Assembly (NCBI GenBank): GCA_965248755.1
Contig: OZ252149.1
Span: forward strand, 3,712,001 to 3,776,000
Direction: 5' to 3'
Source: Candidatus Latescibacterota bacterium
GTDB lineage: Bacteria > Latescibacterota > CBDEFO01
Length of the DNA stretch: 64,000 bases
How positions within the stretch are numbered: the first letter of the stretch is position 1; each line of letters begins with the position of its first letter. A program made the translations under genes and the position numbers. Of the stretch, positions 2-31,374 are shown one piece after another. Under the pieces are notes generated by a model that had not been told where the DNA came from, did not search any database, and worked only from the letters and a program-made list of their open reading frames with translations.

Positions 2-2719
2 TCTGGCTCGGGAAAATCTTCGCTGGCCTTCGACACCATCTACGCAGAGGGTCAGAGGCGATATGTGGAATCTCTGTCTGCTTATGCCAGACAATTCCTG
101 GGGCTTATGGAAAAGCCCGACGTGGACTATATAGAGGGACTATCCCCAGCGATATCGATAGAACAGCGCACGGCGGCTCGGAATCCACGATCTACGGTGG
201 GAACCGTAACAGAGATATACGATTACCTGCGCCTTCTCTTTGCAAGGATCGGTGTCCCGCACTGCTACAACTGCAAAAAGCCCATCGCACAGCAGACAGT
301 CCAGCAGATGGCCGATACAATCAAAAGCCTGCCCCAGGAGGCGAAGATACAGATACTTGCTCCGCTGGTTCGAGGGAGGAAGGGAGAATACAAAGAGGTC
401 TTCCAAAAGGCCCGAAAAGAGGGCTACGTGAGGGTCAGGGTGAACGGTGAAGTTATGACATTGGATAAGGACATAAAACTGGACAGGTACAAAAACCACA
501 ATATAGAAGTCGTGGTGGATAGACTCATAGTGAGCGAAAGGATCGCTTCCCGGCTTGCGGACTCACTCGAAACTGCCTTAAAGCTGGGAGAGGGCATTGT
601 GATGGTGGACGTGATTGACAAAGAGGAACTCCTCTTCTCCGAGCACTTTGCCTGCATCGACTGCAGAATCAGCTACGAAGAGATAGAACCCAGAGCCTTC
701 TCCTTCAACAGCCCTTATGGGGCGTGTACCGAGTGCGACGGCATCGGGACACAGATGAAAATTGACCCGGATCTTATTATACCTAACCCCAACCTTTCGA
801 TAGCAGAAGGGGCGATCGCCTGCTGGGGGGTTCCCAACATGCAGTGGTTCCACGGCGTCCTCTTATCCCTCTCCCGACACTACAAATTCACCTTAAGGAC
901 GCCCTTCTACAAGCTTCCAGAGCCGGCACAAAACGTCGTACTGTGGGGCACAGACGAAAGAATAGGGATGGCATACACCGACGATGAAGGAGTAGAGAGA
1001 AAGTACGAATCTAAATTTGAAGGCGTCATCCCGCGTCTTGAAAGGAGATACAAGCAGACCGAATCGCAGGAGGTCCGGGGATGGATAGAGAACTTTATGG
1101 GCACAAAGCCCTGCCCTGCCTGCAAAGGCGCAAGGCTCAAAAAGGAGAGCCTTGCTGTGGAGCTCAGAGACCTTAATATCACAGAACTTACCTCGATGTC
1201 GGTCAACGATACAGCCAGATTCTTTGACAAGTTGAATCCCACGAAAAGAGAAGAGGCCATCGCCCACCAGATCATCAAAGAGATAAAAGAAAGGCTCAGC
1301 TTCCTTGTGAACGTTGGCGTGGACTATCTAACGCTTGGCAGAAGGGCCTACACGCTTTCAGGCGGAGAGGCTCAGAGAATTCGCCTTGCCACGCAGATAG
1401 GCTCACAGTTAGTCGGCGTGCTCTACATCCTGGATGAACCCAGCATAGGATTGCATCAAAGGGACAACAGACGGCTTCTGGACATGCTCCTTGCCCTCCG
1501 AGACCTCGGAAACACAGTCCTGGTCGTCGAGCATGACAAGGAGACCATACTGACGGCGGATCACGTGATCGACATGGGGCCCAGAGCAGGGGCCGACGGC
1601 GGGAGGGTCGTCACCTTCGGCAGCCCTTCGGAGGTCGCAAAGAACGGATCGCTAACGGGGCAATATCTCTCAGGGGCAAAGAAGATCCCGGTTCCTTCAG
1701 ACAGGCGCCCCGGAAACGGAAGATATATAGAGATCGTCAAAGCCCAGGGTAATAATCTCAAATCGATCGATGTCAAGATCCCATTGGGGACGTTCACCTG
1801 CGTCACAGGAGTCTCTGGCTCAGGAAAATCCACGCTTATCAACGAGACGCTCTACAGATCTCTGGCTCAGAAGATATACAGATCCAGGGATGCTGCGTTG
1901 AGCCATGAAAAGATCGTAAACTGGGGAGAGATAGACAAGGTCATAAACATAGATCAATCGCCAATAGGTAAGACCCCGCGCTCGAATCCAGCCACATACA
2001 CGGGACTCTTCACGTACATAAGAGAACTCTTTGTACAGATACCCGAGTCGAAGATGAGGGGCTACAAGCCAGGCAGGTTCAGCTTCAACGTAAAGGGCGG
2101 GCGATGCGAGGCTTGTAGAGGCGATGGGATCGTGAAGATAGAGATGCACTTTCTTCCGGATGTATATATCCCCTGTGAGGTCTGCAAGGGCAATCGGTAC
2201 AACAGAGAGACATTGGAGGTAAGATATAAGGGCAAGTCGGTAGCCGATGTTCTGGATATGACGGTTGAGGAGGCGCTTGGGTTCTTCCAGAATATTCCCA
2301 AGACAAAGCGCAAGCTCCAGACCCTGTACGAAGTGGGCCTGGGCTATATACATTTAGGTCAACAGGCGACTACTCTCTCGGGAGGAGAGGCCCAAAGGGT
2401 CAAGCTTTCGACCGAGCTTTCAAAGTTGAGCACCGGCAGGACGCTCTACATATTAGACGAGCCTACGACGGGGCTCCACTTTGAGGACATCAAGATGCTC
2501 TTAAACATGCTCTATAAGCTAGTGGGCAAGGGGAATACGGTCGTTGTGATCGAACATAATTTAGATGTGATAAAGACTGCCGATTACATAATAGACCTTG
2601 GACCTGAGGGCGGAGACGAAGGAGGATGGATTGTCGCAGAGGGGACGCCTGAGGAGATAGCGCAGATAGAAAAATCGTATACGGGGAGGTTCTTGAAGAA
2701 GGAACTGGGGATACTATAG
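2..2719 (+). CDS. uvrA: Excinuclease ABC subunit A (5' end outside window)
   Basis: Frame open from base 2 ([26 protein letters not shown]); two ABC modules ([16 protein letters not shown]) and Cys zinc fingers typical of UvrA. Confidence 0.98.
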
Positions 2720-2893
2720 ATAAGCAGACAGAGGTACCGTCTCTATCGCAAGAACGAGATTGCTTTCCCCCGATCCCCGATTCACTCTTTCGGGTGTTCA
2801 ATCGGGTGCACTCGCAATGACAGTTCATCTGTTGCCGAGCTTTCAGTCATTGAGACGTGCTAAACGCTGAAGCAAGCTCAACGGATAGATAAC

Positions 2894-3520
2894 ATGCCCA
2901 CCAGGATATACCTCATAAGACACGGACAGACTGGCTTCAATGCTGAGGGTAGGATACAGGGACAGATGCACAATCCCTTGAGCCAGAAAGGACATAGACA
3001 GGCAAAAGCCTTAGCCCGACGCATCCAGAGCGAAGGGATAGAGTCGCTCCATGCGAGCGACCTGCTGAGAACCAGACAGACGGCAGAGCCTATATCTGAA
3101 GCCACAGGACTTCCAATAACGTTCCACACTGAATTCAGAGAGATATGCCTCGGAGACTTCCAGGGACTAACGTGGCCGGAAGCCGAATCAAAGTTTCCAA
3201 AGGAATGTGAACAGTATGTACAGGATTCCTTTGATTTTGTCTTTCCCAACGGGGAGAACTTCCTCCAGGTAAGAGATAGATCGTTCCGAAGGGTCTTGCA
3301 GATAGCCCATGAATATGAAGGTCAAAGGATAGCCGTGGTCACACACGGAGGTCCGATAGGACTTATGTTAGTTGAGTTCCTCATGGCGGACATAACTTTG
3401 TACAACCGCATCCTGACATACAATACATCCGTTAACATAGTGGAAAGGGGAGCGAACGGTTGGGAAATCGTCGCCTTAAACGATACCTGTCATCTGACGC
3501 CCGATTTGAAAGATGAATAG
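2894..3520 (+). CDS. Histidine phosphatase (phosphoglycerate mutase/CobC-like) family protein
   Basis: RHGQT motif near N-terminus, REICLG, VTHGG motif. Confidence 0.9.
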   Translation: MPTRIYLIRHGQTGFNAEGRIQGQMHNPLSQKGHRQAKALARRIQSEGIESLHASDLLRTRQTAEPISEATGLPITFHTEFREICLGDFQGLTWPEAESKFPKECEQYVQDSFDFVFPNGENFLQVRDRSFRRVLQIAHEYEGQRIAVVTHGGPIGLMLVEFLMADITLYNRILTYNTSVNIVERGANGWEIVALNDTCHLTPDLKDE

Positions 3521-16842: not shown

Positions 16843-16982
16843 AGAGATTTCACTTTCGAGAAGCTACTGTCAGGTCAAAATAGTACGTACAAACTATAGA
16901 AATGCACAATAGTAGGCACGTTCCCGATTGAGTCTATCGGGGATCGCCCCTACATTGGATCCCAACTTGAGGCGACCTATGA

Positions 16983-17882: not shown

Positions 17883-18047
17883 TGTGTTTGCTCCTATGCT
17901 CAAGCCGCATTTTCAAAAGCTCTGTGAATCCCTACCAAACGTGGAAGGATCTTAACAATTACACACTTACATGCATGACTAGCGAAAGTGAACAGAGGCA
18001 TGAAACACTTGGTGAGGAGTTCCTTGATGTTTCTGACAGTGCGTGAG

Positions 18048-18289
18048 TTAGGCAGAATGTGACTTGATCTTCAATCGCTCCCAGTAATTGCTCATGCTTA
18101 CATACGATTCCTTATCAACACTCTTCAAATACTTCAACCAACCACCTACAGAGTTTTCGCTTGTATACTTGCTGTCCTTGCTCAAGTCGAATAGGAGATG
18201 ATGCATAACAGCTCTCATTTGTCTTTTCTTCTTTCGCCCAATACCGATTTTGGGTTCAGAGCTATTCTTAACCAGCCCGGTGATCGAAC
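18048..18289 (-). pseudogene. C-terminal part of the retron reverse transcriptase, separated by IS3
   Basis: Open frame SITGLVKNSSEPKIGIGRKKKRQMRA...GWLKYLKSVDKESY...KSHSA*; ITG is the retron region-Y (VTG) motif; not in the ORF track. Confidence 0.88.
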
Positions 18290-18318
18290 TGTACTGCCCC
18301 CCAGAAAAGCGACATCAA

Positions 18319-19204
18319 TTAAGCAACTTGGGGTAGCAGATAAAATTGTTTTCTCCACTCTTCCGGGGTCTTGTATCCCAGAGATGAATGAAGCCAGTTC
18401 TTGTTGTAATTATCGATCCACTGAGATATGATCTTCTCAGCTTGTTCAAAGGACTTGAAATTGTGAAGCCACACACACTCCTGCTTGAGGGTCCTGAAAA
18501 AACGTTCTATGACCCCGTTCCAATCGGCCTTTCCGCTCGGAATATATTCTTGACGAATGTCCCAATATTCGGTACTTGCCAAATAGGTCCGAGACAAAAA
18601 GATGGAGCCGTTGTCAGAGCGCAAAGTGAGACCCTGGGGGACAGCCTCCTTAGGAAGTGTATCGAGAGATCACGGCCCGATCCAGGGCATCTGTGGCCTC
18701 CAGTGCCCTCCCTTTTCGACTAAAACGATACCCGGGGAACCTCCCGACTCCCGTTGTCCACCACCGCAATAAGAGGACACCAACCATCTTCCCCACAATA
18801 GATCTTGGTCAAGTCAGCCGACCAGAGACTGTCAGGACGATCCATCACAGAACGCTTCTGGGCAACCTGTGGCCCCTTTCTCCCGGGGTCCCCGATTGAT
18901 TCTATCGGGGATTCCACAGCTTACACTGCCACCCCTTAAGCTTCATTATCCTATGAACCTTCTTGATGTTGACATATGCCCCTTCCTTGAAACGAAGATG
19001 CGCCCAAACCCGCCTGTGACCAAATGCCTCTTCTTGGTCGAGTATCCCTCGAATACGAAAAGCAAGCTGTTCATCTATCACAGACTCTTCGACAGAAGAA
19101 CTGACACCTCTATACCTAAGCCTACACAGAGTCGAACGATGCAAACCCAAAGCCAAAGCTACCACCTTCCGGGAATAGCCTCGACCCAAAAACCGCTCAC
19201 TCAA
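18319..19204 (-). pseudogene. IS3-family OrfB (DDE integrase), disrupted
   Basis: Broken by the 21-bp palindrome at 18890-18910 and by frameshifts near 18735 and 18650. Confidence 0.82.
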
Positions 19205-19530
19205 GGCAACCGCTTCGTTTTTTTTAGACGGGCTACCTCCTCGAGTATCTCCAACTGGAGGGTTAAGTGCCCTACCTTACGCTCCAACCGGCTGACCTCC
19301 CGCTCCTTCGCATCCTTGCGACCACGCCGAGACTTCAGACTCTCCTGGCCTCCTTCCAAGAAACTATCACGCCAAGCATACGCCTGTGACTGGCTAATTC
19401 CATTCTTCCAACACACCTCTGATACATTCGCTCCTTTCAAAACAGCCAACACCACCTCTACCTTACGGGTCGCCGTCCAGCGCTTACCATCTTTCACTTC
19501 GGGGCTTGACACCTTGACCTCCTTTCTCAA
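19201..19530 (-). CDS. IS3-family transposase OrfA (HTH)
   Basis: KRWTATRKVEVVL...VSEVCWKNGIS...AW, leucine-zipper-like tail. Confidence 0.85.
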   Translation of the reverse strand: MRKEVKVSSPEVKDGKRWTATRKVEVVLAVLKGANVSEVCWKNGISQSQAYAWRDSFLEGGQESLKSRRGRKDAKEREVSRLERKVGHLTLQLEILEEVARLKKTKRLP

Positions 19531-19577
19531 ACCCCAATTTGCAAAATATTTGTCGCCCTGTCAAGGGGAGCGGTATG

Positions 19578-20284
19578 GAACATCTCTTTCTTGGGCCTAG
19601 GACCCTTAATTTATCAAGATTGAGTTTAAAGTGTTCCGACTTAATAATCTTCAAAACTATGGACAACGATTGGCAAAGCACTTTTGGATTATTTGAAGAG
19701 AAGGTTAAGTCATCTGCGTACCTAGTATATATAATATTTCTTCTCGATGTATAACCTGCAATTCTTCTATCAAGTTTCGCTGCAATTAGATTTGATAATG
19801 AGGGGGAAGTAACAGCACCCTGGGGTAAGTTGCCATCGCAAGTACAAAGATTGGCAAGAGTAGGGGCAGCCTTATTGGAATATCCAATGAGTGAGAACAC
19901 TTTTGCCACACGTCTTATCGAAATGGAAGGAAAAAAATCTTCTAGATCCAAACATATGAAGTATCTGTTGTTACTATGAGGAGATACATTCCCCAAAATG
20001 CCCCTTTGTAGAATGTAAGCCGTAGCATATGGGGAAGGACTTAGCTTATCTAGAATATTTCTGAGTATCCAAGCCTGTATTCCCTTCAAATCTTTTCTGG
20101 GTTGTCTGATTTCGCGCAAAGTACCATTCGATTTCGGTATCGAATACCTTTTGTAGTATCTGCGTGAAAACTCACTAAGCATTACAACCAGCCCTCTGTC
20201 AACGTGCATCAACTCTGCCAGTTCCTTTTGATCAGAGAACACAGGTAGATCCATTAGTCTCAACAGTGCGAAATTACTATTCAT
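19578..20284 (-). pseudogene. Retron reverse transcriptase (Ec86/St85-like), N-terminal part; 314 aa when the IS is removed
   Basis: IPKSNG..REI..P, region-X-like NVSPH, DLEDFFPSI, LPQGAVTSP.LSN, YTRYADDLTFS; rejoins in frame with 18285-18048. Confidence 0.92.
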
Positions 20285-20285
20285 T

Positions 20286-20488
20286 AGAATTTATGGGGCG
20301 AAACAAAAGTCACTTACTCAAAGCATCGCGCAGCGACATGAAATCACGACCTGATGTCGCCTTGAACGGTTTTCTTCAGAAAACCGTTCGAACAGTAATG
20401 GGTCAGTTTACATCCGGAGTGGCGAAACACCACTCAGCTCGTCAGATGACAAGCCTGACTAAGATCATTTTGTTTCACCCCATATTCT
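20286..20488 (-). ncRNA. Retron msr-msd non-coding RNA
   Basis: 17-bp terminal inverted repeat (20468-20484 with 20292-20308, one G-U); CUUAG branch-site context (G at 20459); two msr hairpins (about 20437-20454 and 20417-20435); two msd hairpins (20364-20389, 20333-20360). Confidence 0.88.
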
Positions 20489-21370
20489 CCTATAATTCTT
20501 TCTGAGCGTTAAATTTAGAGCACCTAATCTGAGTTCGGTTAAGAATGACGAAAGTATTCGTGCGCTCTTCTGTGTCTTATTTGCGTACATCAGATTCTCT
20601 ATCCCTGCAAGGGTTGTGGACAGAACTCCTGAATTAAGCGATACTTTTCTTTCTCCGACTAAGCTGTTTATCGCCGTTTCTGCGGCAGTCGCTACAGTCT
20701 TTTCTTCAGTGTTCGCCAGTTTACTTGAGATCTCAATGATTGCAGCTCTTGGTATCGGCTCAAATACATAGATTAATGCCAAGTAGAATCTGTACGCAGA
20801 AATAGGATTCGATAAATCTCTTATTGGTGTAGCATGTTGCGCCACAGCACGTGAGGCATCCGCTATTTGCTTGACGACAGCCTCTAAATTGCTACTTTCC
20901 ATCGACAGATCAAGAACTCTGCTTTTGGTCTTCGTTCTCAGGTATCGAATTGGTCCAAGATTAATAAAGCTTTTCGCTCGAGCAAACTTTGGATTAATCA
21001 CAACAATCAGCTTGTCCCTTAACTTCTCGTGATTTGTAAACGCACCTAGTTCAGTGAAAGTTCCTGGACTTTGGAGTAGAATGACGACAGCATCTACACC
21101 ATTAGCTAGAAGATTTTCTAAAGTTAGCAAGTCGTGTTTTTGATGTCCAAGGATCAGCTCGATAAACATATCTTCCGGATAGTATATAGAATATCTGTAT
21201 TTAGAGACTATCCCGGATATTCCGTCACCAACATCTCTTCTAAATCTCGTTTCTTCTGAAGAACTGCCACCACAAAGAAAGATTGATACTTCCTTTCTGT
21301 CTTGGACTTCATCTAAGAAGAAGTTCCTTAACTGTTCTGCTACTTCCATAACCTTGGAATTCAAAATCAA
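20465..21370 (-). CDS. Retron effector (St85/Ec86-type NDT-like / N-glycosidase fold with C-terminal wHTH-like region)
   Basis: IFLCGG, YPEDMF, DLLTLENLLA, SPGTFTELGAF, SFINLGPIRYL; GGAG RBS before TTG; adjacent to msr-msd and RT. Confidence 0.88.
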   Translation of the reverse strand: MILNSKVMEVAEQLRNFFLDEVQDRKEVSIFLCGGSSSEETRFRRDVGDGISGIVSKYRYSIYYPEDMFIELILGHQKHDLLTLENLLANGVDAVVILLQSPGTFTELGAFTNHEKLRDKLIVVINPKFARAKSFINLGPIRYLRTKTKSRVLDLSMESSNLEAVVKQIADASRAVAQHATPIRDLSNPISAYRFYLALIYVFEPIPRAAIIEISSKLANTEEKTVATAAETAINSLVGERKVSLNSGVLSTTLAGIENLMYANKTQKSARILSSFLTELRLGALNLTLRKNYRRIWGETK

Positions 21371-21442
21371 AAATTCTCCGCTCTAATTGCAAAATGCCAG
21401 AGCACCGATAAGAATTGGTCTCTACTGAGCATACCCTGCATC

Positions 21443-21471
21443 AATATACGCGCTAACTTGCTTATTGTCAA
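21443..21471 (-). promoter_or_regulatory. Sigma70-type promoter of the retron operon
   Basis: TTGACA-17 bp-TATATT on minus strand, about 70 bp upstream of the effector start. Confidence 0.75.
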
Positions 21472-21474
21472 TCC

Positions 21475-21553
21475 AAAATACACCCTTAATCCCCCAAGGA
21501 TAAGCCACGTAACCATCAGGATGTTTTTCAACGATAATCTTGAATTGTCTCAT
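21475..21553 (-). pseudogene. Truncated HicB-like antitoxin N-terminus
   Basis: GGAGG RBS then MRQFKIIVEKHPDGYVAYPWGIKGV; resemblance is lost at the retron island edge. Confidence 0.55.
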
Positions 21554-24038: not shown

Positions 24039-24387
24039 AGCCTCTTCCGGATATTAAATCAGTAGACGGTAGCCCCCGAATGATTCTATCGGGGATCGGG
24101 GGTAGGGAGGGACTCCTCCGTCCTCCATCTATGCTACCCACTTTTTTTCACAGTGTCAAGACTTTTTTCACAGTTGGGCTTGGAAAGTGTAAATCTCACT
24201 GAAAAAATGACCTGAAGAGACAGCAACTCGGCTCTTTCGCGAACCGACAGTCACTCGCTTACACTTTTAGAACTTGACAGAAGGAAGGAAATTCATTGCA
24301 TTGTAAGGCAGTTATCTATACAGAGGAGCACTATCTTGCTTAGTGCAGACGCTCTGGTCTGCCCCCATACAAAAAAGGAGTGCAAAA

Positions 24388-25654
24388 ATGGCTGTCGAGT
24401 CCGCAGGGTCCAGTGCAGCAGGTGACCCCCATAATGGACGCAGCAAGAATGGTAAAGGTGAACAGTTCTCCAAGATGCCCATAGACTCAGTCTTGTCGCT
24501 GGATGGTCTGTCCGACAGGGCAAAGCTTGTGTATGCTGCTATCCAAAAGTGGGACTGGGGGCAAGGATGTTTTGCAGGGCACAAGAATATAGCCGAAGTC
24601 CTCAGAAGGTCTGAAAGCACTGTAAAAAGGGGAGTCAAGGAACTCAAAGACTCAGGACTTGTAACTATAAAATATGAAGGTCGCGGTCTCAATGCAGCGA
24701 TTTATGTCCTGCAAGATCAAGACAGGTCAGATGTGACCTCTCAAGATCAAGACAGGTCAGATGTGACCTCTCAAGATCAAGACAGGTCAGATGTGACCGC
24801 TCAAGATCAAGACAGGTCAGATGTGACCTCTCAAGATCAAGACAGATCAGATGTGACCCATCTAGACAGCTCAGATGTGACCTCTCTAAACAGGTTAGAT
24901 CTGACCTATCCTTACAATATAACAGACGACTTGGAAATAGACGACTTAGAAACAGACGACACACCTCATGCATGCGGTGATGCTGGCGGTGATAATGACT
25001 TCTCAAAAAGCAAAAGGGAAATAGTCATCCAGTTCTACAGAAAACTTGATCTGCCAGAGGTGTCCAAGAGCTATATAAAGCTTGGCATAAGGCTCATAAC
25101 TAGGCTTGAGAGGCAGGGATACAGTCTTGAGCAAATAGATCTATGCCGCAAGCTGGACACTGGATAATTGCCTTCCAAAGCACTTCGGGCTAGTTGCGCA
25201 TACGATCGGTGAGGCATTGGCGGAAAGGCACAGAAATATCGAACAGGAGCGCATAAGACAGGAACAAATAGTGCGAGAGGAGGAACGTAAGATAGCTCAA
25301 GACGCCAAGCTGCAGGAAGAAGCACAAGAAAGGAATAGAATAATTGACCGATCTCCATACAAAAAGGAGTGGGATCGCTACAGGGAGCTGATTAGAGCGG
25401 AGATTAAGCATCAGTCATACATGACGTGGTTTACTGGGCTTTACATAGATGAGTTATCCGACGGACAGGTAACTTTGAATGTCCCTCACAGGTTCATGGC
25501 TGACTTCATAGGAGAAAATTACGACAAATTGCTAAGGGATATATTCCAGAGAGACGTGAAGCTTCAATTAGAGAGTAGCCCCCGCTCCCCCCCGATAGAA
25601 TCATTCGGGGGCAGCGAAGCCTCTGAGATTGCTTCGTCAGACAGGAATGTCTGA
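24388..25654 (+). pseudogene. Replication-initiator-like protein (N-terminal HTH, internal repeats, C-terminal DnaA-N-like domain) with a +1 frameshift near 25141
   Basis: LSDRAKLVY...IAEVLRRSESTVKRGVKELKDSGLV HTH; removing one base gives ...EQIDYAASWTLDN... running into WDRYRELIR.EI...SYMTWF......VTLNVPHRFMADFI. Confidence 0.68.
24712..24907 (+). repeat. Intragenic 30-bp tandem repeat (iteron-like)
   Basis: CAAGATCAAGACAGGTCAGATGTGACCTCT about x5, then two shorter degenerate units; core palindrome AGGTCA-GATG-TGACCT. Confidence 0.95.
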
Positions 25655-29748: not shown

Positions 29749-31374
29749 CCGACATTCCCCATATCACATTCATGAGGGATTATATTTCGATACATTCTTG
29801 TTTCTGAATTAATATTACCACTTTTACATTTTTCAACAAGTACTTTTTTCAATTAAAATAGTATTTTCCTCTGAATTATCACTTTCTTTGTGTTTAAATC
29901 CTCCAATTAGAGACACCTCTCCATCGACTCACAAAAAAATGTGGCAGTTTAAACAGAATAACATCGCAATCGTTCAATCCGGGATAATATTTCGGCAAAT
30001 AACCTCTTGTCTATCCCAACCTCAGCCATTTGAAACGTAATATATCCGCTGTGTCTGACAATCTTCGCTCCGATTTTGATAAATTTCACGAGGAGGCTGC
30101 GTAGTGACCAGTGTTTGATTTTCTTCGGAAGAACAAAACGTCGCAGGAAGTTGCCCAAGTTGTAAGCCAGAACAAACAGCCAGAGCCTCACCTGATTGGA
30201 GACGAAACGCTTGCATGAGAGTCGGGTCCAGTTCAGAGCATACTTGCCCTCCTTAATCCACTGCTCAGCTCTGCCACGGCCATTGTAGAAGTGTACCACG
30301 CCTTCTGGCTTGGCGCTCATGTTGGTCACGATAAATCCCACTCTTGGGAATAACTCCCCTTGGTGCCATTCAACCTTGGCGACCACTCGCCTCGATTGAT
30401 CCCAACTGGCCGCTTTATATTGAAATTCATATAACGATACAATCGGTTTCCTCGGCGGTCGTCCAACTGGCCGAGTCAGCAGGTATCGTATCTTTTCATA
30501 GAGTATCTCATTTGCGGGAAGCCGAATGGCATACAAATAGCCGTTTCCCTCCAGATAATCATAAATCTCAGGCTTTGCGAATGCAGCATCGCCTCGAAAG
30601 TATTTCCTATTCTTCTTGCTCTCGTATCTCTTGACGATCGGTTCCAGAACTTCCTTCCAACGATCAGCACTGTGAACATTACCAGAGCGAAGTAGGACTC
30701 CTTCACAATCCCCGAACTGATTGAAGCAGAACACTGGATGAAAACAGGTACATCCGAAATGACCGTTGTAAGCTGATCCTTCCTGCTGGCCATGTACCGG
30801 ACTCTCCGAACTGTCCATGTCCAGAATGATTCGTTGATGCTGTGTTTTACTCATCGCTTTTTGAACCCACTTGCCATTGATATCTGACAAGTTTCTGAGA
30901 TTGTCATGCTGAGTCAGTATATCAGTTTCAAAACGTCCTATCGTGTTGGAGCTGGCAGCTTGCCTGCCTTTGTCCTTCTTTCCGGTAATCGCTCGCATGA
31001 CGGGATCAACGGATAATCGCTCGGCGTCATTTACATCTTCATATCCTGCAAGACGGCTGTATATCGATTGACGCAGGAGAGTAGATATATCATGTTGGAT
31101 ATTACGGCCTGTGCGTTTATCGGTAAAAACCGCTGATACCGAATCAAATAATCCCAGTGCGTAATCAAGGTCACGATACGCAAGAAGTCCACCGTTTGAT
31201 GTCACCTTTGCACCATGAAATTCAAGCTTTATTCCTCCATCAAAACCTACTTTCATTCTTTCACCCTCTGGATGATCAATATTTATCCGCCATTTATGAG
31301 TCTTATTTATTGTAATATAACATGTTCTGGCGACTTTGACAACCATTTTTCGGGTCTAATATGGCGAATGGGGG
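29749..31374 (-). mobile_element. IS1380-family element, copy A (1626 bp)
   Basis: IRL CCCCCATTCGCCATAT and IRR CCGACATTCCCCATAT; same sequence as copies B-D. Confidence 0.95.
29949..31346 (-). CDS. IS1380-family transposase
   Basis: TSNGGLL, LAGYEDVND, ILDMDS, RGDAAF, YNGRGRAEQWIKEGK. Confidence 0.93.
   Translation of the reverse strand: MVVKVARTCYITINKTHKWRINIDHPEGERMKVGFDGGIKLEFHGAKVTSNGGLLAYRDLDYALGLFDSVSAVFTDKRTGRNIQHDISTLLRQSIYSRLAGYEDVNDAERLSVDPVMRAITGKKDKGRQAASSNTIGRFETDILTQHDNLRNLSDINGKWVQKAMSKTQHQRIILDMDSSESPVHGQQEGSAYNGHFGCTCFHPVFCFNQFGDCEGVLLRSGNVHSADRWKEVLEPIVKRYESKKNRKYFRGDAAFAKPEIYDYLEGNGYLYAIRLPANEILYEKIRYLLTRPVGRPPRKPIVSLYEFQYKAASWDQSRRVVAKVEWHQGELFPRVGFIVTNMSAKPEGVVHFYNGRGRAEQWIKEGKYALNWTRLSCKRFVSNQVRLWLFVLAYNLGNFLRRFVLPKKIKHWSLRSLLVKFIKIGAKIVRHSGYITFQMAEVGIDKRLFAEILSRIERLRCYSV

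Follow-up and report, generated by a model that had tools for sequence, protein, structure and literature searches.

A probable type II-A3 retron with its reverse transcriptase gene split by an IS3-family copy in a Latescibacterota genome

General background on retrons in defence is given by Millman et al. (10.1101/2020.06.21.156273) and by PMC12548924. Within type II-A, Ec86 (Retron-Eco1) and Vc137 have been assigned to type II-A3, with a reverse transcriptase (RT) of clade 9 (Mestre et al. 2020, PMC7736814), and a 2019 review mentions Eco1 'and an upstream ORF' (PMC6868368). According to the same review, the ORFs of Sen2, Eco3 and Vch2 sit between msr-msd and the RT gene, a position that PMC11701397 likewise reports for the Sen2 ORF. 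The original prediction for the locus described here had taken ncRNA-RT-effector as the established order of both Ec86 and St85 (Sen2); for St85 this is wrong, as the order reported in the two sources is ncRNA-ORF-RT, and for Ec86 it is contradicted by the sequences considered below.

In Ec86, the msDNA stem is the part bound by the effector and also the location of the Dcm site through which the effector is triggered (10.1101/2023.08.16.553469), an 8-bp stem with a UUU loop is the RT-binding element, and deletion of region Y of the RT abolishes msr binding (PMC6868368). The effectors of Eco1, Eco3, Vch3, Cle1 and Bth2 are reported to be dimeric and non-toxic, the defence exerted by Eco1 being linked to NAD+ hydrolysis, whereas the Sen2 effector is described as toxic and tetrameric (10.64898/2026.10.13.758329). 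The earlier picture of Ec86 and St85 alike as tripartite anti-phage toxin-antitoxin systems is doubtful for the Eco1 branch, whose effectors are reported as non-toxic alone.

The locus lies on the minus strand of a 64,000-nucleotide stretch (the window) of contig OZ252149.1, from a Candidatus Latescibacterota bacterium (assembly GCA_965248755.1). It is, very probably, a type II-A3 (Ec86/Eco1-like) retron, ordered effector-ncRNA-RT as is normal for this type; an IS3-family copy has split its RT gene, and the retron is likely inactive now. As such, it is a new, broken member of II-A3, its only possibly new trait being a predicted multi-hairpin msDNA.

Components and class of the retron

The retron island, insertion sequence (IS) included, spans positions 17896 to 21479 (minus strand). 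Once the IS is removed, 2296 nt remain with a GC content of 40.9%, the genome median being 48.6%; a value as low is found in 1.3% of same-sized genome windows, and the AT-richer minus-strand island originally described is thereby borne out. The kin of the source genome comprise one same-genus genome, G001 (96% complete), the next relatives being at phylum level, which would agree with the probably uncultured lineage originally suggested. G001 holds both flanking genes and lacks the island, and a search of this 96% complete genome with the effector model gave no match. At the retron site it carries instead a 74-aa ORF and a 79-aa ORF, the latter being HicA (Pfam 2.5e-8, above cut-off). A profile search with the 74-aa ORF returned nothing above cut-off, and from its position we presume it to be hicB-like; intact in G001, it survives in the window as a remnant of about 24 codons at 21480 to 21553 (minus strand). 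Because the window keeps these first codons, the retron likely replaced a G001-type hicB-like and hicA pair. An effector match occurs in three of the 151 phylum genomes searched, source genome included, no second RT or effector copy was found elsewhere in this genome, and the window's ORF list contains no integrase beside the retron.

A candidate sigma-70-like promoter, TTGACA-17-TATATT, lies barely within the island edge at 21443 to 21471 (minus strand). It agrees with the consensus at 11 of 12 positions; when the 200 nt upstream were shuffled 1000 times, as many matches or more arose twice. Among relatives the excess is mild only, with a best score of 10/12 in 9 of 35 loci versus at least 10 in 23 of 350 shuffles.

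The first gene (20465 to 21370, minus strand) encodes 301 aa from a TTG codon, or 294 aa from the ATG at 21349, and combines an NDT-like with a winged-helix part (RcaT family); the motifs IFLCGG and SPGTFTELG are located as originally stated. The protein matches the PADLOC model NDT_II-A PDLC02930 (5e-67) and NCBIfam NF038232, the St85-family effector (150 bits, cut-off 100), so that the profile match proposed as a check was obtained; a Pfam search gave no family, though the homologue table gives PF28093. The same NCBI 'St85 family' name is borne by the effector of Ec86 itself. In the PDB, the Ec86 effector is the sole match (2e-35, residues 27-255 covered), with identity at 94 of 273 aligned residues (34%). 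The catalytic glutamate is conserved (E107, corresponding to Ec86 E106), and of the listed ligand-site residues of Ec86 six out of eight are kept (E65, S100, E106, F128, S133, N136), D69 and K131 being changed; at the listed Ec86 positions contacting msDNA, the residue is the same in one of six by pairwise alignment. Given these changes at D69 and K131 and at the msDNA contacts, the assembly of effector, RT and msDNA may, to judge from the sequence, differ from that of Ec86.

The RT gene is present in two pieces on the minus strand. The 5' piece (19578 to 20284) covers fingers and palm, with region X as NVSPH at residue 99 (not NAxxH) and YADD at 189, while the 3' piece (18048 to 18285), severed by the IS, holds the thumb and region Y, which begins with ITG at 237. 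The motif set originally listed for the RT (YADD with region-X/Y-like motifs) is thus there, and the combination that marks a retron-type RT is found only over both pieces together. NVSPH aligns with Ec86 NATPH, and ITG with Ec86 VTG; a V-to-I change at the start of region Y also occurs in RT-Vch2 (PMC6868368). The pieces sum to 314 aa, the length of seven of nine close relatives' RTs (the other two have 313 and 315), and all nine align gap-free over the break, their identity to the window RT being 75-83% up to that point and 56-69% beyond it. As present, the RT ORF has 266 aa and ends in an IS-derived tail. Against NF038233 the 5' piece scores 226, below the cut-off of 235, and an intact relative scores 265. 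The original prediction spoke of a 'reconstituted' RT, and so implied the IS, yet left it unstated in its reasoning.

Both pieces have RT_II-A PDLC02941 as their best PADLOC model (4.2e-90 for the 5' piece; 3.2e-15, over profile positions 233-300, for the 3' piece), and the best models of the Ec86 proteins are the same PDLC02930 and PDLC02941. A PDB search with the RT places Ec86 first (5e-49; 118/307 identical, 38%), far above the clade-1 RTs of Ec78 and Ec83 (2e-21 and 5e-18). In a tree of 131 RTs, built by a quick method with no bootstrap after exclusion of duplicates and of matches below 240 aa, and containing no II-A1 RT (Sen2, Eco3), the window RT shares a clade of 71 rows (SH-aLRT 99) with Ec86, and the 60 RTs that lack such an effector fall outside it. 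The other 70 rows of this clade, Ec86 included, all have the effector-ncRNA-RT order, and the window RT belongs to a 38-row environmental sub-branch inside it (support 100). Taken together, the locus has the NDT-like effector with a C-terminal DNA-binding part of the Ec86 cluster and an RT of the Ec86 clade, as in type II-A3; the ncRNA-effector-RT order and the clade-1 RT of II-A1 are not seen, the ncRNA lying between the genes and Ec78 and Ec83 scoring far below Ec86. The type II-A-like assignment originally made can therefore be narrowed to II-A3, the distinction from II-A1 resting on profiles, PDB ranks and gene order.

Between the two genes, the spacer at 20292 to 20484 folds at -87.7 kcal/mol (z -8.5), with none of 200 shuffles equally stable; the structured spacer of about 200 nt that had been noticed is a folded RNA of about 190 nt with covariation. 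The a1 (20460 to 20484) and a2 (20292 to 20316) arms, on the minus strand like all parts of this RNA, form the region's longest inverted repeat (29 nt). They are joined by a predicted branching (priming) G at 20459 in TTAG, to which this role is given by analogy with Ec86, by msr hairpins at 20398 to 20458 that include an 8-bp stem with a UUU loop, and by an msd template at 20318 to 20407, whose ends are likewise placed as in Ec86 and which would yield a two-hairpin msDNA (stems of 7 and 12 bp) about 90 nt long. The elements of a retron RNA, from its arms and branch G to the hairpins of msr and msd, are hence all found, and a motif-level likeness to Ec86 is seen. Applied to Ec86, the rule for the msDNA ends gives 85 nt versus 86, the missing base being due to the way in which the fetched loci were trimmed, with an offset of one. 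Neither CCWGG nor GATC occurs in the window's predicted msDNA, and an Rfam search returned no retron match and one chance match below threshold.

In an alignment of 26 ncRNAs (the window and 25 near relatives, which are kin and not independent, with L095 badly trimmed), 27 of the 37 consensus pairs vary on both sides, 92.5% of pairing cells are paired, a share that falls to 80.5% on shuffling and to 42-54% in slid controls, and the TTA/TAA pairs at the branch site are invariant in 26/26. More broadly, 68 distinct loci have an a1/a2 stem whose closing motifs are TTAG-like and GTAAG-like, 10 loci having been missed or set aside. The branch G is the final base of the effector stop codon in 30 of the 68, Ec86 included; in the window it lies 6 nt past the stop, a spacing shared by 11 of the 68. 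The overlap of a1 with the effector's final codons is, at the level of sequence, an Ec86-like trait.

The insertion sequence and the present state of the system

The IS occupies 18290 to 19577 (minus strand, 1288 bp, OrfB broken), is flanked by the 4-bp target duplication GTTC, and entered one codon ahead of the ITG that opens region Y. Members of the IS3 family as a rule end in TG...CA. In this genome the left end is CA in 68 of 69 copies, against the rule, and the right end is canonical; NF033516 matches on three pieces, in line with the family's OrfA (helix-turn-helix) and OrfB (integrase core), together with a 26-nt inverted repeat and the 4-bp duplication, and the family label follows the transposase profile. 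An exact 4-bp duplication is found at 48 of the 69 full-length copies in the genome. The 1288-bp form has 15 copies at 99.8% identity or more, six of them identical, the retron copy among these. Its OrfB is broken by a short palindromic insert and single-base indels whereas a 1266-bp form retains the long frame, so that the 1288-bp form likely moved in trans. An alternative cut of the IS, giving an RT of 325 aa, disagrees with the ends of the other copies. Among the entries listed by a literature search on IS-disrupted retrons, there was nothing specific.

In the intact retron, the promoter at 21471 would drive a single transcript containing the effector, msr-msd and the RT. The a1 and a2 arms would pair and expose G20459, and the RT, binding the UUU-loop hairpin via region Y, would produce the msDNA of about 90 nt, linked 2'-5'. 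The effector would then form a complex with RT and msDNA like that of Ec86, and the action of a phage DNA-modifying protein on the msDNA would lead to NAD+/nucleoside hydrolysis by the effector and to abortive infection, if Ec86 is a guide. CCWGG, the trigger site of Ec86, is absent from the window's predicted msDNA. With the IS one codon before ITG, the 266-aa product would be devoid of region Y, its msr-binding end, and no msDNA would be made, which leaves the system likely dead.

An effector left without its partners is, by analogy with the Eco1 clade, likely tolerated, as it would be non-toxic alone. The non-toxicity reported for Eco1-clade effectors would account for an effector that has stayed intact while the RT is dead, and an RT knockout of this kind fits the report that these effectors are not free toxins. 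The opposite view is that, like the Sen2 effector, this one is toxic when RT-msDNA is missing, the cell surviving only because the effector is silent or the insertion too recent for purging. Such a view would agree with the NCBIfam St85 family name and with the intact catalytic glutamate. We consider it unlikely, as Ec86's effector shares that name, the window's effector is nearest Eco1, whose clade is reported as dimeric and non-toxic, and the strong promoter-like site is intact.

Could the retron still work in its host, with the IS in part of the population only, as an assembly artefact, or with the split RT complemented by its 3' piece? The effector, the ncRNA and both RT pieces are without decay, five further copies match the IS exactly and mark it as recent, and Retron-Bth1 yields RT-DNA despite a group II intron in its RT (PMC12548924). 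Even so, this reading has a very small probability: the 4-bp duplication marks a genuine insertion and rules out an artefact, an IS cannot splice, and there is no second RT or effector copy in the genome. In addition, contigs from four runs of one sample (depth 2-8) contain no junction bypassing the IS, a weak check; in the three runs covering the site the flanking contigs stop 22-26 nt into the IS, under the 31-nt bridging bar. In the history of the locus, a toxin-antitoxin pair was thus likely exchanged for a retron, which an IS burst then disabled.

Gene order and msDNA hairpins among relatives

Relatives were collected with queries that included an RT alignment, a single effector sequence used against genome contigs having given no match. 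Out of 179 loci fetched, 98 contain both genes, 61 the RT only and 20 the effector only (19 of these with at most 371 nt downstream). The tabulation of gene order originally proposed gives effector-gap-RT on the same strand in 98/98 loci, with a gap of 121-278 nt in 96; the loci come from Serratia, Bowmanella, Terribacillus and Lachnospiraceae and also from P2-like prophages, and, since they include near-duplicates and the queries come from this branch, they speak for the II-A3 order and not for all type II retrons. One of them (L163) is Ec86 itself, with RT (320/320) and effector (306/307) identical to the PDB chains and the order effector-gap-RT; the BL21(DE3) annotation also lists effector then RT on one strand, and the Ec86 stretch is present at 99% or more in 48 of 5426 E. 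coli genomes. At a distant locus (L197) effector and RT abut, as expected for II-A1. The available parts of PMC13712802 and PMC10849725 hold nothing on II-A3 order or hairpin number. The idea that type II-A retrons have here been rearranged into an order, effector-ncRNA-RT, that is new or has escaped description is almost certainly wrong: II-A1 retrons are ordered otherwise (ncRNA-ORF-RT), but Ec86 and all 98 loci share the order and the upstream ORF of Eco1 stands in PMC6868368. Effector-ncRNA-RT is the normal II-A3 order, already in print, and a headline on gene order is unimportant, the order being that of the best-studied retron.

The msDNA is where the locus may depart from what is described. 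Folded as DNA, the predicted msDNA has 2-3 hairpins (at least 6 bp) in 27/27 scored members of the near sub-branch, and a single one in 19/19 other II-A3 loci and in 11/11 Ec86-branch loci; 12 of 69 loci, 7 of them from the near group, were dropped from this count for a missing anchor hairpin, and the effector score, rather than the tree, placed three of the loci (L082, L101, L130) in the near group. A rougher first count (25/28, 5/29, 0/11) was superseded by the anchored one. The second hairpin of the window is weak, with 7 bp as DNA. The multi-hairpin trait, in its predicted form, is one evolutionary event. Double hairpins are not new to retrons, since a 'single/double long hairpin' is described in PMC7736814 and Retron-Eco8 also has two; among the entries listed by a literature search there was no account of multi-hairpin msDNA for II-A3, and the supplement of PMC7736814 may hold one. 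We suggest as a possibility, somewhat short of an even chance, that an undescribed environmental II-A3 sub-branch makes msDNA with two to three separate predicted hairpins, some visibly duplicated, rather than the one long stem of Ec86. If true, since the Ec86 stem serves both as the scaffold for effector binding and as the sensor of methylation, complexes of this branch would differ in their assembly, or else would monitor several DNA-modifying activities of phages simultaneously. The spare hairpins would, in that case, provide natural places for cargo in retron editing. Members of the sub-branch would also offer natural variants for testing how the msDNA stem holds or triggers an Ec86-type effector.

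Comparison with described retrons

The closest counterpart is Retron-Eco1 (Ec86), which shares with the window the effector-ncRNA-RT order, an a1 arm overlapping the 3' end of the effector gene, the branch G in TTAG, GTAAG on a2, the 8-bp stem with a UUU loop, the best PADLOC models and the catalytic glutamate; its msDNA has 86 nt, against the predicted 90 or so. Unlike Ec86, from which it differs at 34% (effector) and 38% (RT) identity, the window has NVSPH in region X and ITG in region Y, an msDNA predicted to form two hairpins instead of one and lacking a CCWGG site, no prophage or integrase alongside, and an RT split by an IS.

Retron-Eco8 is of type I-B2 and has an OLD-nuclease effector. 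It resembles the window in an msDNA with two DNA stem-loops (10.64898/2025.12.04.692459), whereas its effector is unrelated and its RT match is weak (4.6e-9). The II-A1 retrons Sen2 (St85), Eco3 (Ec73) and Vch2 share the NDT-like and DNA-binding effector, together with the NCBIfam 'St85 family' names, but are reported to have the ncRNA-ORF-RT order and an RT of clade 1. Finally, Retron-Bth1 is likewise a retron whose RT gene is split by a mobile element (PMC12548924); in that case a group II intron interrupts the gene and RT-DNA is reported to be made all the same, whereas the element in the window is a DNA insertion sequence.

The retron site in a same-genus genome

At the position occupied by the retron in the window (17896-21553), the same-genus genome G001 carries a gene labelled hicB-like from its position, paired with hicA (G001:C6:25030-25562, equal to 2531-3063 of the matching locus L193), and in the window the hicB-like gene is reduced to its first ~24 codons. 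No integrase was found near the window retron. The retron seems to have taken the place of this toxin-antitoxin pair.

IS3-family copies and an associated palindrome

The IS3-family element in the retron RT has expanded in a burst, with 69 full copies genome-wide, 68 of which start with CA instead of TG. The 1288-bp form that splits the retron RT (18290-19577) has a broken OrfB and occurs as 15 near-identical copies in the genome; it was likely mobilised in trans. Within its OrfB lies an inserted palindrome of ~23 nt (18887-18911), whose pattern has 206 matches in the genome and a second site near 16920-16943 of the window. The same palindrome is included in a ~275-bp non-coding repeat at the corresponding site of G001 (L193:2258-2535), which is absent from the matching site in the window, and at least 30 copies resembling this repeat are found in genome G000.

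Other reading frames in the window

On the plus strand, a 274-aa ORF (24343-25167), in which a 10-aa unit is repeated in tandem roughly five times, is followed by a 145-aa ORF; this arrangement may be a replication-initiator-type remnant. The 465-aa ORF on the minus strand (29949-31346) is, by its appearance, a putative transposase.

Decay and hairpin duplication among related retrons

Five other II-A3 loci, L196 (in genome G029), L001, L116, L126 and L141, are apparently broken, with split RT or effector frames, and thus retrons of this kind may often decay, although some of the breaks may be assembly errors. Among the relatives, an entire hairpin unit is tandemly duplicated in the msd region, the template part of the ncRNA, of L084 (3386-3605), L081, L082, L087 and L088, but not of the close relative L090, thus illustrating a route by which additional hairpins may arise.
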